DNA from: Candidatus Methylomirabilota bacterium
Lineage (GTDB): Bacteria > Methylomirabilota > Methylomirabilia > Rokubacteriales > DASRDR01
Length of the DNA stretch: 64,000 nt
Direction of reading: 5' to 3'
Assembly (NCBI GenBank): GCA_035550795.1
Contig: DASZOL010000017.1
Location: 5,113-69,112, forward strand
Shown here in pieces: positions 42,469 through 46,914 of this stretch (the first letter of the stretch is position 1; each line of letters starts with the position of its first letter). Under the pieces are notes generated by a model. The model was not told where the DNA came from, searched no databases, and worked only from the letters and a program-made list of their open reading frames with translations. The position numbers were made by a program, and so were the translations under genes.

Positions 42469-42562
42469 GAATCGCTCCTGCTGTCTCGGCGCTAGATGAG
42501 GCGACCGCCGCGGCTCACGACGGAAGGCGGGATCGCCGGGCGGCGACGAAGATGTGGCGCAC

Positions 42563-43144
42563 TCAGGGCCTCGAGCCGTCGGGAGTGTACTCCTCGGCTC
42601 GAAAGAAAGTCAAGGCGCTGTCGCCGAAACGCCGCGGCCGGCGGTGCGCCACGAGGTCCGGCACCGCCGGAAGCTCAATCCGCGTGGAGTGCTGCACGAC
42701 CACTTCCGTCCCGTTCCGGCAGACGCCGGTGGCACCGAGCGCCTGGAGGGTGCGCGCGGCGAGGGTGGTCGCATACGGAGGGTCGAGGAAGACGAGGTCG
42801 AACGGGCCCTCCTGGGCGCCCAGGTCGGCGAGCACGCGGAGCACGTCGCCCGCCAGCACGCGGGCGGCGGCGCGGGACGCACCGAGCGCCGTCAGATTCG
42901 CCCGCAGCGCGCGCAGGGCCGACGGGTCTCGCTCCACCAGCACCACGCGGGCCGCGCCGCGGGACAGCGCTTCGATCCCGACCGCTCCCGTGCCGGCGAA
43001 GAGATCCAGGACGCGCGCCCCCGCGACGGCCGGCCCGAGCACGTCGAACAGGGCTTCGCGCACCCGGTCGGCCGTCGGGCGCGTCCGGAGTCCCCGGGGC
43101 GCCCGGAGACGCCGCCCGCGGTCGTGGCCGCCGATGATGCGCAC
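42563..43144 (-). CDS. rsmD: 16S rRNA (guanine966-N2)-methyltransferase
   Basis: ORF track 193 aa. RPTADRVREALFD, LDLFAGTGAVGIEALSRGA, DPPY. Confidence 0.85.
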   Translation of the reverse strand: MRIIGGHDRGRRLRAPRGLRTRPTADRVREALFDVLGPAVAGARVLDLFAGTGAVGIEALSRGAARVVLVERDPSALRALRANLTALGASRAAARVLAGDVLRVLADLGAQEGPFDLVFLDPPYATTLAARTLQALGATGVCRNGTEVVVQHSTRIELPAVPDLVAHRRPRRFGDSALTFFRAEEYTPDGSRP

Positions 43145-43150
43145 GTCGGC

Positions 43151-45244
43151 CTATCCGATCGACGCGAGCTCGAGACGCTCGCGCCATCGGGCGAGAAGCG
43201 CCTCGCGCAGGGCGCGGTGCTCCGGGGAAGCGAGCCCCGGATCCCGCGCCACCAGCTGCGCGGCCTCGTCTCGCGCCTGCTCGAGAAGCCGGGCGTGGGT
43301 CACCAGGCCGGCCGTGCGGAACTCGGGGAGCCCGGACTGGCGCGTCCCGAAGAACTCGCCCGGTCCGCGGATCTCGAGATCGGCCTCGGCGAGACGGAAC
43401 CCATCCTGGGTCTCGGCCATGGCGTCGAGCCGCTGGCGGGCGTCGTCGGACAGGGGCTCGTTCGCGATGAGCACACAGAAGGACCGCGCCGCCCCGCGCC
43501 CAACCCGCCCCCGGAGCTGGTGGAGCTGGGCCAGCCCGAAGCGCTCGGCGTGCTCGATCAGCATCACGGAGGCGTTGGGCACGTCGATGCCGACCTCGAC
43601 CACGGTCGTCGCCACCAGGACGTCGACGTCCCCCGCCTTGAACGCCCGCATCACCGCGTCCTTCGCCTCGAACGCGAGCCGCCCGTGGATGAGGCCCACG
43701 CGGAAGTCCCGGAAGGCACCCGCCTGGAGCCGCTCGGCCATCTCGGTCGCCGCCTTGAGGTCGCTCGCCTCCGTTTCCTCCACCAGCGGGCAGACAACAT
43801 ACGCCTGCCGCCCCGCCCGGAGCTCGCTCCTGACGAACTCGTAGATCCTGGCCCGGGCCGGCTCGCGCCGCACCTCGGTCCGGATGGGCGTCCGGCCCGG
43901 AGGCAGCTGGTCCAGCACCGAGACGTCGAGGTCGCCGTACAGGGTGAGCGCCAGCGTGCGGGGGATGGGCGTGGCGGTCATCACGAGCACGTGCGGATGC
44001 TCGCCCTTGCCGCGAATGGATGCGCGCTGGAGCACGCCGAACCGGTGCTGCTCGTCCACTACCGCGAGCCCGAGGCGTTGGAGCTCGACCGTCTCCTGGA
44101 TCAGCGCGTGCGTACCCACGCCGATGGCGGCCGCGCCGCCCCGCAGCGCCTCTAGGGCCGCCTGGCGGTCGCGCGCGCGCTGGCCGGCGGCGAGCCAGGC
44201 GACCGAGAGGCCCAGCGGCTCGACGAGGGCCCGCACCGTCCGGAGGTGCTGCTCCGCCAGGATCTCGGTCGGCGCCATCAGGAGGGCCTGGCACCCCGCC
44301 TCCACGGCGGTCAGGAGCGCCATGACCGCGACGATCGTCTTGCCCGAGCCGACGTCGCCCTGGAGGAGCCGGTTCATCGGCACCGGGCGCGCGAGGTCCG
44401 ACCGGATCTCAGCCCACACCCGCTCCTGAGCGCTCGTGAGCGCGAACGGCAATCCGCGGAGGAGACGCGCCACGAGCGCTCCGGGGGGCGCGAGCGGTCG
44501 CCCATGCTCCCGGGCCTGCCGCCGGCGCCGGAGGGTGAGACCGACCTGTAACACGAAGAAGTCCTCGAAGGCGAAGCGCCGACGGGCCGCCTCGATGTCG
44601 TCCAGCCGGTCGGGAAAATGAACGGCGCGGTACGCCGCGGCGACCGGGACGAGGTCCCGGCGCCGGCGGAGCTCGTCGGGAAGGATGTCGGGGACCTGCT
44701 CCGCGTGGGCCTCGACGACCTGGTACAGGAGCGTCCGCATCGGACGCTGGAAGAGCCCCTCGGTGAGCGAGTAAACGGGCACCACGCGGCCCATGTGGAT
44801 CGAGGCCAGCTCGTCCTCCTCCACGATCTCGAAGTCGGGGCTTTCCAGGACGACGCGCCGGTCCTTGGCGAGGGCCTTCTTCCCGTAGAGAACGACCCGC
44901 TGGTCGCGCTTGAAGACCTGGGCGAGGAACCCCCGCCCGAACCAGAGGGCGGTGAAGTAGCCGGTCTGGTCTCGGAACGTCACCTGCACAGGAGCCCGCG
45001 ATCCGCGGGGCGGAGGCGCCACCCCGAACACGGTCCCCTGCACGACGCCTGTCTCCCCCAGGGGAAGCTTGTGGAAGGGCACGAACTCCCGGCGATCCTG
45101 GTAGTCCCGGGGGAAGTGATTCAGCGCGTCCCGCACGGTCGCGAGCCCCAGACGCTCGAGCAGTCGGGCGCGCTGGGGGCCCACGCCCTTGAGGTACTGG
45201 AGGGAGGTGTCGAGGCCGGCGGGGGCCTTAGCAGCCGGATTCAC
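43151..45244 (-). CDS. recG: ATP-dependent DNA helicase RecG
   Basis: ORF track 697 aa (GTG start). Wedge domain; GDVGSGKT, DEQHRFG, TATPIPRT, QLRGRVGRG. Confidence 0.9.
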   Translation of the reverse strand: MNPAAKAPAGLDTSLQYLKGVGPQRARLLERLGLATVRDALNHFPRDYQDRREFVPFHKLPLGETGVVQGTVFGVAPPPRGSRAPVQVTFRDQTGYFTALWFGRGFLAQVFKRDQRVVLYGKKALAKDRRVVLESPDFEIVEEDELASIHMGRVVPVYSLTEGLFQRPMRTLLYQVVEAHAEQVPDILPDELRRRRDLVPVAAAYRAVHFPDRLDDIEAARRRFAFEDFFVLQVGLTLRRRRQAREHGRPLAPPGALVARLLRGLPFALTSAQERVWAEIRSDLARPVPMNRLLQGDVGSGKTIVAVMALLTAVEAGCQALLMAPTEILAEQHLRTVRALVEPLGLSVAWLAAGQRARDRQAALEALRGGAAAIGVGTHALIQETVELQRLGLAVVDEQHRFGVLQRASIRGKGEHPHVLVMTATPIPRTLALTLYGDLDVSVLDQLPPGRTPIRTEVRREPARARIYEFVRSELRAGRQAYVVCPLVEETEASDLKAATEMAERLQAGAFRDFRVGLIHGRLAFEAKDAVMRAFKAGDVDVLVATTVVEVGIDVPNASVMLIEHAERFGLAQLHQLRGRVGRGAARSFCVLIANEPLSDDARQRLDAMAETQDGFRLAEADLEIRGPGEFFGTRQSGLPEFRTAGLVTHARLLEQARDEAAQLVARDPGLASPEHRALREALLARWRERLELASIG

Positions 45245-45281
45245 GGGACAGACAACCCCGCAGGCGAGCGAGGCGCCAGGC

Positions 45282-45310
45282 TTGTCTCACCTCGGGCTCC
45301 ATGGTATAGA
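45282..45310 (+). promoter_or_regulatory. candidate sigma70-type promoter of rpmB
   Basis: TTGTCT (45282-45287), 17 nt, TATAGA (45305-45310), ~80 nt upstream of the rpmB ATG in the recG-rpmB divergent region. Confidence 0.45.
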
Positions 45311-45392
45311 AGTGCGTCGCCCGGCGGCAAGCCTGGTCCTCCCGGGGCCGGCCCGGCCGCTGGAACCCATCTCTCCCGAGGAGTCCAGGAGC

Positions 45393-45584
45393 ATGGCCCA
45401 GCGCTGCGATGTCTGTGGAAAGGGCCCCGTCGTGGGCAACCGTATCAGTCACGCGCACAACGTCTCCTCGCGCCGATGGCTGCCGAATCTGGTCTCGATG
45501 CGGGCGGTCGTGAAGGGCCAGGCCAAGCGGGTACGCGTCTGCACGCGGTGCCTTCGCGGAGGCAAGGTCGTCAAGGCCGTCTGA
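45393..45584 (+). CDS. rpmB: 50S ribosomal protein L28
   Basis: Within ORF 45189..45584; ATG 45393 after AGGAG. Peptide MAQRCDVCGKGPVVGNRISHAHNVSSRRWLPNL..., 63 aa, a canonical bL28. Confidence 0.9.
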   Translation: MAQRCDVCGKGPVVGNRISHAHNVSSRRWLPNLVSMRAVVKGQAKRVRVCTRCLRGGKVVKAV

Positions 45585-45589
45585 GGACC

Positions 45590-45622
45590 GGCCGCCGGGG
45601 GTGCCAGTCCCCCCCGGCGGCC
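45590..45622 (+). terminator. GC hairpin terminator after rpmB
   Basis: 12-bp stem (45590-45601 / 45611-45622; core ccgccggggg/cccccggcgg) with a 9-nt loop. It starts 6 nt after the rpmB stop; no U-tract. Confidence 0.55.
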
Positions 45623-45679
45623 TGCGCTGACAGGAGAACGAGGGCCGGGGCTGGCTTGACCCCCGACCCGTCTCACGCA

Positions 45680-45718
45680 CTACTTCTTCTTCTTCTTCGC
45701 AGCCTTCTTCTTCGCCAC
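45680..45718 (-). CDS. candidate micro-ORF B: 12-aa poly-Lys/Ala peptide (M)AKKKAAKKKKK
   Basis: Hand-found. GGGAGGTG (45733-45726), 7 nt, GTG at 45718 (or TTG at 45721), then GCG AAG AAG AAG GCT GCG (AAG)x5 TAG. An imperfect hairpin (45642-45669) lies downstream. A near-duplicate of micro-ORF A. Confidence 0.4.
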   Translation of the reverse strand: MAKKKAAKKKKK

Positions 45719-45753
45719 CAACGATCACCTCCCTTCCTTTCGTCTTGGTCCCG

Positions 45754-45775
45754 CGAAGGGGCTGCACCCCCTTCG
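45754..45775 (-). other. stem-loop separating the two micro-ORFs
   Basis: 8-bp perfect stem cgaagggg (45754-45761) / ccccttcg (45768-45775) with a 6-nt loop. Lies 17 nt downstream of the micro-ORF A stop. Confidence 0.45.
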
Positions 45776-45791
45776 AGCGACACCACCGACG

Positions 45792-45827
45792 TTACTTCTT
45801 CTTCTTCGCGGCCTTCTTCTTCGCCAT
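45792..45827 (-). CDS. candidate micro-ORF A: 11-aa poly-Lys/Ala peptide MAKKKAAKKKK
   Basis: Seen as the C-terminal tail of track ORF 45792..45998. GGAGGTG (45840-45834), 6 nt, ATG at 45827, then GCG AAG AAG AAG GCC GCG (AAG)x4 TAA. Confidence 0.45.
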   Translation of the reverse strand: MAKKKAAKKKK

Positions 45828-45861
45828 CGTGCTCACCTCCTTCCGTCGCTCGTGAGCGAGG

Positions 45862-46914
45862 CTAGAACCCCATCGCGTCGCGACGGAGCTTCTCGGCCTG
45901 CTCTCGCCCGCGCCGCTCGTGGCCATGGAGATCCACGTAGAGCTGCGGGAGGCTGACCACCCGGAATCCGCCCTTGACGACGGGCGCATAGAAGACACCC
46001 GGGTCGTACGGGGTCATCAGGTACACCGACCCGTCGCCGTCCACCGGCTGAAGCCCCAGGGCTCGCACCAGCGCCTCGGGGTCCCCGCTCACGTAGCAGT
46101 GGACCGTCGAGACCCGCGTGTGAGGCCCAATCAGGGACGCCCCTGCGTGGAGCGTGAAGGCGTAGCTCATCCCGAGCTCGGTCGCGTGGCGGGCCAGGGC
46201 CTCCATGACCCGACGCTTGTCCCCCGCGGGAGAGACGAACGCGCTGAGGCCGTTCACGCGGTAGCTGTACGCGTCGCGCCAGGCGTCGAGCAGCTCCCCG
46301 GGACGGGCCAGGCGATACAGCCCGTCGCGGCCCCGCTCGACCCAGTCGAGCTCCTCCAGCCGATTGACGACGTTGTGGGCATGGCCGAGGCTCACGCCGA
46401 CGGCTCGGCCCAGCTCGTCCAGGCGCCACGCCCGCTCCCGTTCCACCAGGAGCGCTCGCACGACCCGCGTTGCCCGGGGCGCGAACAGGGTCTTGAGCGG
46501 GCGCCGGGTCAACCCGGCGTTGGGCCGACCTTCCTTGTGGATCAGGACGTTGTCGAAGGCCAGGTAGCAGTTGCCCGAAAGGTCCAAATAGCCGCAGCCG
46601 TTCCGTCGGACGAGCGCCGCCGACTGGGCCGTCACGTAGGGGGCGGCGACGATCGGATAGGCCCCGGGAAGGTGCGGCCGGATCTCACGAAGGCGGGTGA
46701 TCGCTTCCCGCAGGTACCGGGGCTCGCCCCGGGATCGGGTCTCGCAGATCAGGGTCTTGGTCTCCTGCCCGGGCCCCATCCGGAACCTGACGAGCACATC
46801 CACCGTCTGGTCCCCGACAGTAGCATCTAGCGACTCCTGCCATTCCGCGACTTGCGGAAAGAGCCCGCGGAGCCGCTCCGCGGCTTCCTTCTTGAATTCG
46901 ACGATCCGGACCAT
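45862..46914 (-). CDS. uncharacterised protein with central winged-helix DNA-binding domain (possible nuclease-like N-domain and AbiEi-like C-domain)
   Basis: Track ORF 45862..46932 (GTG); the ATG at 46914 (MVRIVEFKKE) is equally possible. The central segment WRLDELGRAVGVSLGHAHNVVNRLEELDWVER looks like a wHTH. N-domain has D-x(n)-E-x-(K/R)-like DVLVRF...LICETRSRG. C-terminal SLPQLYVDLHGHERRGREQAEKL resembles AbiEi-type antitoxin C-domains (from memory, weak). Confidence 0.6.
   Translation of the reverse strand: MVRIVEFKKEAAERLRGLFPQVAEWQESLDATVGDQTVDVLVRFRMGPGQETKTLICETRSRGEPRYLREAITRLREIRPHLPGAYPIVAAPYVTAQSAALVRRNGCGYLDLSGNCYLAFDNVLIHKEGRPNAGLTRRPLKTLFAPRATRVVRALLVERERAWRLDELGRAVGVSLGHAHNVVNRLEELDWVERGRDGLYRLARPGELLDAWRDAYSYRVNGLSAFVSPAGDKRRVMEALARHATELGMSYAFTLHAGASLIGPHTRVSTVHCYVSGDPEALVRALGLQPVDGDGSVYLMTPYDPGVFYAPVVKGGFRVVSLPQLYVDLHGHERRGREQAEKLRRDAMGF

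Follow-up and report, generated by a model that had tools for sequence, protein, structure and literature searches.

Tandem lysine-rich micro-ORFs beside rpmB in Rokubacteria as probable, very small protein-coding genes

The ribosomal proteins bL37 (24 amino acids, aa) and bS22 of mycobacteria, Thx of Thermus, and eL41 (25 aa) of eukaryotes and archaea are very short and extremely basic, have no fold of their own, and combine strong translation signals with a tendency to be missed by gene callers. bL37 lies buried in a pocket of ribosomal RNA (rRNA) and was found only through cryo-electron microscopy (PMC5876184), and eL41 has been described as the smallest ribosomal protein (PMC13485352). Searching the literature on oligolysine micro-proteins, Lys-rich small open reading frames (ORFs), small proteins of Rokubacteria and unannotated ribosomal proteins, we found only bL37 and eL41 to be relevant. 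Here we analyze two tandem micro-ORFs, A and B, on the minus strand of a 64-kb stretch of DNA (the window) from a Rokubacteria (Methylomirabilota) bacterium. They are probably real, very small, unannotated protein-coding genes. The predicted peptides resemble the tiny basic ribosomal proteins in size class, basicity and translation signals but fail sequence membership of these families, as judged with 21–24-aa variants. They also differ in having 10–13 residues, about half the size, in consisting of nearly pure Lys with two or three Ala, and in being encoded in one to three tandem copies plus a further locus. Yeast eL41 likewise derives from duplicate genes.

Lys/Ala tails that bind nucleic acids, such as those of histone H1-like proteins and the C-termini of actinobacterial HU/Hlp, have a composition of the AKKKAAKKKK type, whereas here the motif is the entire product, with its own Shine–Dalgarno (SD) sequence, stop codon and stem-loop and without a folded domain. 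Leader peptides of the hisL, pheL, thrL and trpL type comprise 11–25 codons dominated by one amino acid, with their own SD and a stem-loop past the stop. The micro-ORFs share the enrichment in one codon type with these attenuator leaders but lack two of the three defining features. To our knowledge, there is no lysine-codon attenuator. In the context of type IV toxin-antitoxin systems, the gene upstream of the micro-ORFs recalls AbiE, since it encodes a winged helix-turn-helix (wHTH) together with an AbiEi_2 domain, and the micro-ORFs occupy the slot that holds a partner gene in distant homologues.

Micro-ORFs A and B and their coding signature

Read directly on the minus strand, micro-ORF A (45792..45827; ATG at 45827-45825, TAA at 45794-45792) has the sequence ATG GCG (AAG)3 GCC GCG (AAG)4 TAA and encodes the 11-aa peptide MAKKKAAKKKK. 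Its SD, GGAGGTGA (45833..45840), is located 5 nucleotides (nt) 5' of the ATG; counted from the GGAGGTG core (45840-45834), the spacer is 6 nt. Micro-ORF B (45680..45718; GTG at 45718-45716, TAG at 45682-45680) reads GTG GCG (AAG)3 GCT GCG (AAG)5 TAG and encodes the 12-aa peptide MAKKKAAKKKKK. The corresponding SD, GGGAGGTGA (45725..45733), ends 6 nt 5' of the GTG, and its core GGGAGGTG (45733-45726) leaves a spacer of 7 nt. In close relatives the start of micro-ORF B is an ATG at the same position, and the orthologues of micro-ORF A have drifted solely at synonymous positions. An earlier note on this DNA had given coordinates, SDs, spacings, peptides and hairpins for both copies, and all of these are correct on our reading of the minus strand from 45300 to 46300.

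Lys codons make up 7–8 of the 11–12 codons (64–67% Lys), and the two copies are 97% identical across the 32 nt delimited by a repeat finder. The window contains exactly two instances of a 30-nt core, GCGAAGAAGAAGGCNGCGAAGAAGAAGAAG, which is absent from all of 100 dinucleotide-preserving shuffles. The 8-mer GGAGGTGA, a perfect 8-nt SD match, has just four sites on both strands of the window (128 kb), two of which are the SDs of A and B. Translation of A by read-through from the TAG of the AbiEi-like gene was considered and ruled out, because the 34-nt gap leaves micro-ORF A out of frame.

The comparison with relatives covers 80 loci (L001–L080), obtained from a scan with one genome per GTDB species, whose AbiEi-like proteins are 50–93% identical to that of the window. 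In all 80, one to three Lys-rich micro-ORFs follow straight after the stop of the AbiEi-like gene, at a distance of 25–40 nt, each preceded by GGAGGTGA or GGGGGTGA as SD site. Under a slightly looser SD definition there are two copies in 72 loci, one in 7 and three in 2. Both strands of the 80 loci, about 0.55 Mb in total, contain no further Lys-rich micro-ORFs. The earlier note had named loss of the frame or SD in relatives as an outcome that would speak against the micro-ORFs; frame, SD, start and stop are retained in 80 of 80 loci. The order common to Rokubacteria is AbiEi-like wHTH gene, micro-ORFs, then rpmB in the opposite orientation, and rpmB converges on the micro-ORFs in all 78 loci long enough to judge. 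The positions of the zincin, relA and recG genes are retained in 72–79 of 81 loci, so that the whole block of relA, zincin, AbiEi-like gene, micro-ORFs, rpmB and recG is syntenic across the order. Within the close clade the flanks differ between the two copies, and each flank is conserved with its orthologue; therefore, the duplication of the micro-ORF predates this clade, with both copies kept since.

Start, stop, codon and length tallies were made on 148 micro-ORF copies from the Rokubacteria loci. ATG is the start in 132 copies and GTG in 16, with the SD core 7–11 nt upstream. The stops are TAG (93), TAA (54) and TGA (1). As background we used a crude set of 419 long ORFs with high GC at third codon positions from the same sequences (window and L001–L080), which end in TAG in 217 cases (52%), TGA in 182 (43%) and TAA in 20 (5%). 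Relative to this set, the micro-ORFs almost wholly avoid TGA and are enriched in TAA about seven-fold, the pattern expected when efficient termination is selected. Taken together, the perfect SDs and the TAA/TAG stops would be signs of strong, accurate expression. The prevalence of TAG (52%) over TGA (43%) among the crude ORFs is itself a feature of these genomes of about 70% GC; among ORFs of the window only, TGA is ahead, 41 versus 25.

The lengths cluster at 10–13 aa, with a long class of the first copy at 15–25 aa, mostly 20–25 (for example MPKRKKAVKKGGKKKATKKGKRK); the 20–25-aa forms take in G, V, T, S and P. All length differences are whole codons, and the reading frame is open in 148 of 148 copies. 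The AAG tract shows no out-of-frame length variation among the relatives, which the earlier note had proposed as the mark of a simple repeat, and it does not behave as a microsatellite. Identical peptides are carried by 7–14 distinct DNA versions that differ solely at third positions and the stop codon; for MAKKKAAKKKKK the 14 versions vary in the third positions of Ala and Lys codons, in ATG versus GTG and in TAA versus TAG. Where Arg replaces Lys, it is encoded by CGG (36), CGC (32) or AGG (28), and by these codons the exchange is one that keeps the presumed charge rather than the sequence or the codon. The per-site deviation from the column consensus is 0.05–0.13 within the micro-ORFs, compared with 0.54–0.55 in their flanks (6 nt upstream of the start codon and 12 nt downstream of the stop codon). 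Because of this synonymous drift, the exchanges between Lys and Arg, the whole-codon indels and the variable flanks, the alignments argue strongly that selection acts on a translated peptide and not on a nucleotide repeat. The earlier note had preferred this explanation from the two window copies, and up to 14 DNA versions per peptide, the Arg codons of the CGN type and the variable flanks now bear it out. Its expectation that standard gene callers overlook such ORFs also holds, as only a few of the 23–24-aa variants are present in IMG, as 'hypothetical protein'.

Occurrence at other loci and in other lineages

A peptide-level DNA pattern, ATGGCNAARAARAARN{0,3}GCNGCNAARAARAARAAR, was used to scan metagenome contigs. 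It returned at least 120 stretches, and 80 loci were examined. Among the matches listed, about 35 loci have the Rokubacteria context, and about as many show the same ORF of 11–14 codons on contigs of 27–72% GC without an AbiEi-like gene or rpmB nearby; these latter ORFs, again among the matches listed, end 0–3 codons past the pattern. The same peptide is written with AAA and GCA codons in contigs of 27–36% GC and with AAG and GCG in contigs of 70% GC, and this recoding is also seen within syntenic sets conserved in a lineage. Three matches on viral contigs were discarded, as they are the N-terminus of one 149-aa protein. The motif MAKKKAAKKKK also starts longer proteins (L146, L121, L124, L155, L156), among them a GroES-like co-chaperonin extended at its N-terminus by Lys-rich sequence, and several Lys-rich proteins of 160–360 aa.

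A second high-GC locus has the order phosphoribosyltransferase gene, promoter, 5' untranslated region (UTR), GGGAGGGGGGTGA, MAKKKAAKKKKKK, two hairpins, EamA gene, nrdR and glyA. Its promoter, TTGACA-N17/18-TAnnGT, is of the sigma-70 consensus type and is conserved in 12 of 12 loci, and the EamA gene starts 12–90 nt downstream of the micro-ORF. The serine hydroxymethyltransferase encoded there is 96–97% identical to proteins labelled Methylomirabilota, and up to 100% identical to other labelled proteins from metagenome-assembled genomes; because of this identity, the second locus probably also belongs to Rokubacteria. In L203 (8700-8850, minus strand) the MAKKKAAKKKKKK ORF stands free, with the promoter TTGACA-N17-TAGAGT, and both its 5' UTR and its two hairpins are conserved; other members are L088, L102, L106, L111, L134, L139, L142, L151 and L162.

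Patescibacteria have the micro-ORF between murB and secA, followed by a canonical terminator, and secA lies 96–340 nt downstream. The SecA proteins of these contigs are labelled Patescibacteria, Lloydbacteria or Paceibacterota, and MurB is just 27–53% identical among the loci. The ORFs in question (L095, L096, L104, L112, L118, L161, L207, L208/L209, L212) are rich in Lys, Arg and Ala, 13–31 aa long, followed by a canonical terminator and mostly without a recognizable SD; one is called in IMG as part of a 57-aa gene. When SecA homologues were sampled independently of the DNA pattern, three of the four informative cases had a Lys/Ala-rich ORF upstream (19, 22 and 31 aa), one had none, and a further contig was too short to judge. 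On archaeal contigs an M50 peptidase gene lies upstream of the ORF, with uL1 and a P0 protein with RL10P insert nearby, and the flanking proteins are 35–51% identical; L129, a separate contig of low GC, encodes a tRNA with an intron. In contexts represented by single loci the ORF stands next to the genes for aspartyl-tRNA synthetase, FtsK, riboflavin synthase, DNA ligase or glycyl-tRNA synthetase, several times with a clear promoter and terminator. Because the contexts in the second locus, in Patescibacteria and on archaeal contigs are unrelated, the putative micro-gene is independent of any particular neighbour. The predicted peptides belong to an unannotated class of Lys/Ala peptides of 10–13 residues, or 20–31 in some lineages. 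As read from these alignments, purifying selection maintains the class throughout Rokubacteria, and peptides of the same kind turn up again in Patescibacteria and archaea.

Stem-loops and transcription signals

Both micro-ORFs of the window are followed on the minus strand by a stem-loop without a U-tract, located with a repeat finder and RNA folding. Stem-loop 1, 3' of micro-ORF A (45754..45775), reads CGAAGGGG-GTGCAG-CCCCTTCG, and the imperfect stem-loop 2, 3' of micro-ORF B (45642..45669), reads GGGTCGGGG-GTCAAGCCAG-CCCCGGCCC. In the clade of the window the loop GGTGCAGCC of stem-loop 1 is invariant and the stem shows compensatory changes in L005, L008 and L011; it is probably a terminator or a stabilizer of the 3' end. 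All copies, in this clade as in the distant Rokubacteria, have a stable stem-loop 11–25 nt past the stop.

In place of stem-loop 2, the distant Rokubacteria carry a near-invariant 24-nt hairpin, GGTGGGGGGTGGCGGCCTCCCACC, conserved in its loop as well. It is present at at least 56 loci, each from a different species, once per locus and 11–23 nt after the stop of the last micro-ORF. The G·U, A-U and G-C exchanges within it are compatible with pairing only on the micro-ORF strand. Such conservation exceeds what a terminator needs, and the hairpin may be a specific binding site for a protein or an RNA. It spans L019–L080 (for example L025, 4254-4277) and is often followed by GGGACTCAT; the neighbouring proteins are widely diverged among these species.

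Folding of 45630-45850 (minus strand) gives, in both the minimum free energy and the centroid structure, two independent hairpins with the micro-ORFs largely unpaired (z-score −0.79) and no alternative terminator/antiterminator pairing that overlaps the micro-ORFs. A consensus promoter and terminator scan of 45200-46100 found nothing, and in a home-made sigma-70 scan the sites upstream of and between the copies at all loci score no better than control positions. An own promoter for the micro-ORFs at the window locus is thus not supported. Because no sigma-70-like promoter precedes or separates the copies, the micro-ORFs of the window are probably distal cistrons of the AbiEi-like transcript. 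Rfam 15 gave matches at chance level in the window region at E ≤ 10, and at gathering score in 39 related loci only tRNAs located elsewhere.

Candidate roles and gene neighbourhood

By analogy with the tiny ribosomal proteins, the peptide could be a trans-acting polycation that binds nucleic acid, with the ribosome as its most likely target; this is the best supported of the proposals considered here, and we see its balance as even. Each micro-ORF, closed by its own stem-loop, would be translated from its own full-consensus SD, with the distal end of the AbiEi-like mRNA as the most likely template. Given the Ala at position 2, the initiator Met would be removed, leaving AKKKAAKKKK and AKKKAAKKKKK as products, with net charges of roughly +7 to +9. 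Small enough to diffuse, such a polycationic peptide would act in trans by binding nucleic acids, which are polyanions. The ribosome or its rRNA would be the most likely target, as eL41, Thx, bL37 and bS22 fill rRNA pockets, and a role as polyamine-like counter-ion for RNA or DNA is possible as an alternative. A broader version of the proposal is tentative and rather doubtful: free-standing oligolysine genes of 10–13 residues would be widespread in Bacteria (Rokubacteria, Patescibacteria and others) and Archaea, with their own SD and terminator and often a promoter, and their products would be either a hitherto unrecognized part of the ribosome or its rRNA, or a gene-encoded replacement for polyamines.

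Several points weigh against these proposals. We infer translation, like high expression and the binding target, from sequence alone, and with 11 residues the peptide would not reach half the size of even the smallest known ribosomal protein. Pfam and NCBIfam searches, which covered four variants of 21–24 aa only, returned no family at E ≤ 10, ribosomal ones included. Since synteny extends over the entire block throughout the order, having rpmB or the wHTH gene as a neighbour is uninformative on function, and linkage to rpmB was rejected as evidence, the neighbourhood being one of conserved gene order. The near-invariance of GGTGGGGGGTGGCGGCCTCCCACC, loop included, is not required by a plain terminator and hints at a function in cis at the RNA level. 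Finally, since the peptide is of low complexity and the search pattern was defined on the peptide, the recurrence across phyla may reflect convergence instead of homology; shared ancestry and convergence are not decidable from so short and simple a sequence.

The hint at a cis function deserves the most attention among the alternatives. In this scenario, which we consider unlikely, translation of a Lys-rich mini-ORF would itself be what counts, rather than its free product. Formation of the stem-loop would depend on how ribosomes occupy the mini-ORF, on their pausing as the polybasic chain emerges, or on how much Lys-tRNA is available. The output would be termination, stability of the 3' end of the AbiEi-like mRNA, insulation from the convergent rpmB, or expression of the next gene, such as the EamA transporter gene or secA. 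It would account for codons that are mostly Lys, as in classical leader peptides, for the stable stem-loop within 11–25 nt of every copy and for the near-invariant 24-nt hairpin, whose G·U pairs work only on the micro-ORF strand; EamA (12–90 nt) at the second locus and secA (96–340 nt) in Patescibacteria could be the genes affected. However, the window and 78 of 78 relatives have no gene downstream on the same strand that could be regulated, as rpmB is convergent, which upholds the earlier note in its view that these are not leader peptides. In addition, micro-ORF and hairpin lack the alternative pairing of attenuators, the two hairpins being independent, the ORFs unpaired and the z-score only −0.79, and where a downstream gene exists it varies by lineage. 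Replacement of Lys by Arg through CGN codons and the forms of 20–25 aa would break a sensor of Lys codons yet keep the positive charge, so that charge is retained rather than the codon that an attenuator leader reads.

The AbiE-like neighbour allows a different explanation, which we find quite improbable, in which the micro-ORFs encode a new small polycationic toxin or co-factor under control of the wHTH/AbiEi-like protein. Two distant AbiEi-like homologues (38–39% identity) each carry an unannotated gene for about 287 aa in the same slot, 11–12 nt downstream; for one of the two genes there is a weak match to AbiEii (E = 0.045). Rokubacteria are without this partner: none of the 80 loci has an ORF for an AbiEii (DUF1814) nucleotidyltransferase between the AbiEi-like gene and rpmB, and at all 80 the micro-ORFs follow instead, 25–40 nt downstream and without an intervening promoter. 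The Rokubacteria protein is, by its domains and gene order, a putative antitoxin-like regulator and an orphan, the slot of its partner being occupied by the micro-ORFs. Unlike AbiE, this locus has a fixed, syntenic place among housekeeping genes (relA, recG, rpmB) throughout the order instead of lying on a mobile island, and the micro-ORFs exist also without any AbiEi-like gene, as a free-standing copy with its own promoter at the second locus and in other phyla and archaea. Moreover, a Lys/Ala peptide is without the hydrophobic face typical of known small toxins, which weighs against this explanation. The earlier note had suggested a link of the products to the upstream wHTH gene; with the block syntenic as a whole, a copy under its own promoter and unrelated contexts elsewhere, we do not retain it. 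That the stretch is non-coding, as an (AAG)n simple repeat, an RNA platform binding proteins or ribosomes (an SD decoy) or a small RNA open by chance, is hardly credible. The low complexity and the 97% identity of the copies over 32 nt would fit, and the very strong SDs alone could hold 30S subunits. Yet none of the 148 copies has lost its frame, start or stop, third positions and stops vary under an unchanged peptide, the same peptide is spelled with AAA/GCA at 27–36% GC and AAG/GCG at 70% GC, and no Rfam family matches.

If these peptides are produced, a conserved stand-alone gene could be as short as about 11 codons, and they would represent a component systematically removed by annotation pipelines and tryptic proteomics. 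A gene-encoded polycation, as opposed to polyamine enzymes, would be a new route to neutralize RNA, including in the genome-reduced Patescibacteria and small archaea, and would reopen the question of further unseen components of the ribosome or nucleoid in uncultured phyla. Should the class extend across domains, few known protein-coding genes that are conserved and stand alone would be as short as its members. Comparative searches for micro-genes also gain a clean positive control from the SD, start, whole-codon indels and stop-codon bias of this case.

The AbiEi-like gene (45862..46914, minus strand) encodes the 350-aa protein with wHTH and AbiEi_2 domains and stops 34 nt before micro-ORF A. 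In Pfam the protein matches PF09952 AbiEi_2 at E = 3e-6 (above the cut-off) and HTH_IclR, and its first ~150 residues match no Pfam family. An exact-protein look-up returned no record. Close homologues labelled Rokubacteria or Methylomirabilota number in the hundreds, and the family consists of proteins of about 350 aa in 3513 representative clusters. Further upstream lie the zincin-like gene and relA/spoT; beyond rpmB follow recG and an rsmD-like gene.

On the opposite strand, rpmB (bL28; 45393..45584, plus strand; Pfam Ribosomal_L28, E = 7e-21) converges on the micro-ORFs. Two overlapping candidates, a 68-aa ORF at 45792-45998 and a 415-aa ORF at 44618-45865 (plus strand), were dismissed as high-GC artefacts overlapping real genes, and on both strands of 42496-45865 the long ORFs antisense to recG and rpmB are likewise the usual high-GC artefacts and not genes. 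rpmB is followed by a terminator-like hairpin (45590..45622, plus strand) with a perfect 12-bp GC stem, GGCCGCCGGGGG / CCCCCGGCGGCC. This hairpin is near-invariant, loop included, in 13 sequences of the close clade, the only departures being single bases in L001, L008 and the window, and the intergenic sequence around it varies within the same clade.

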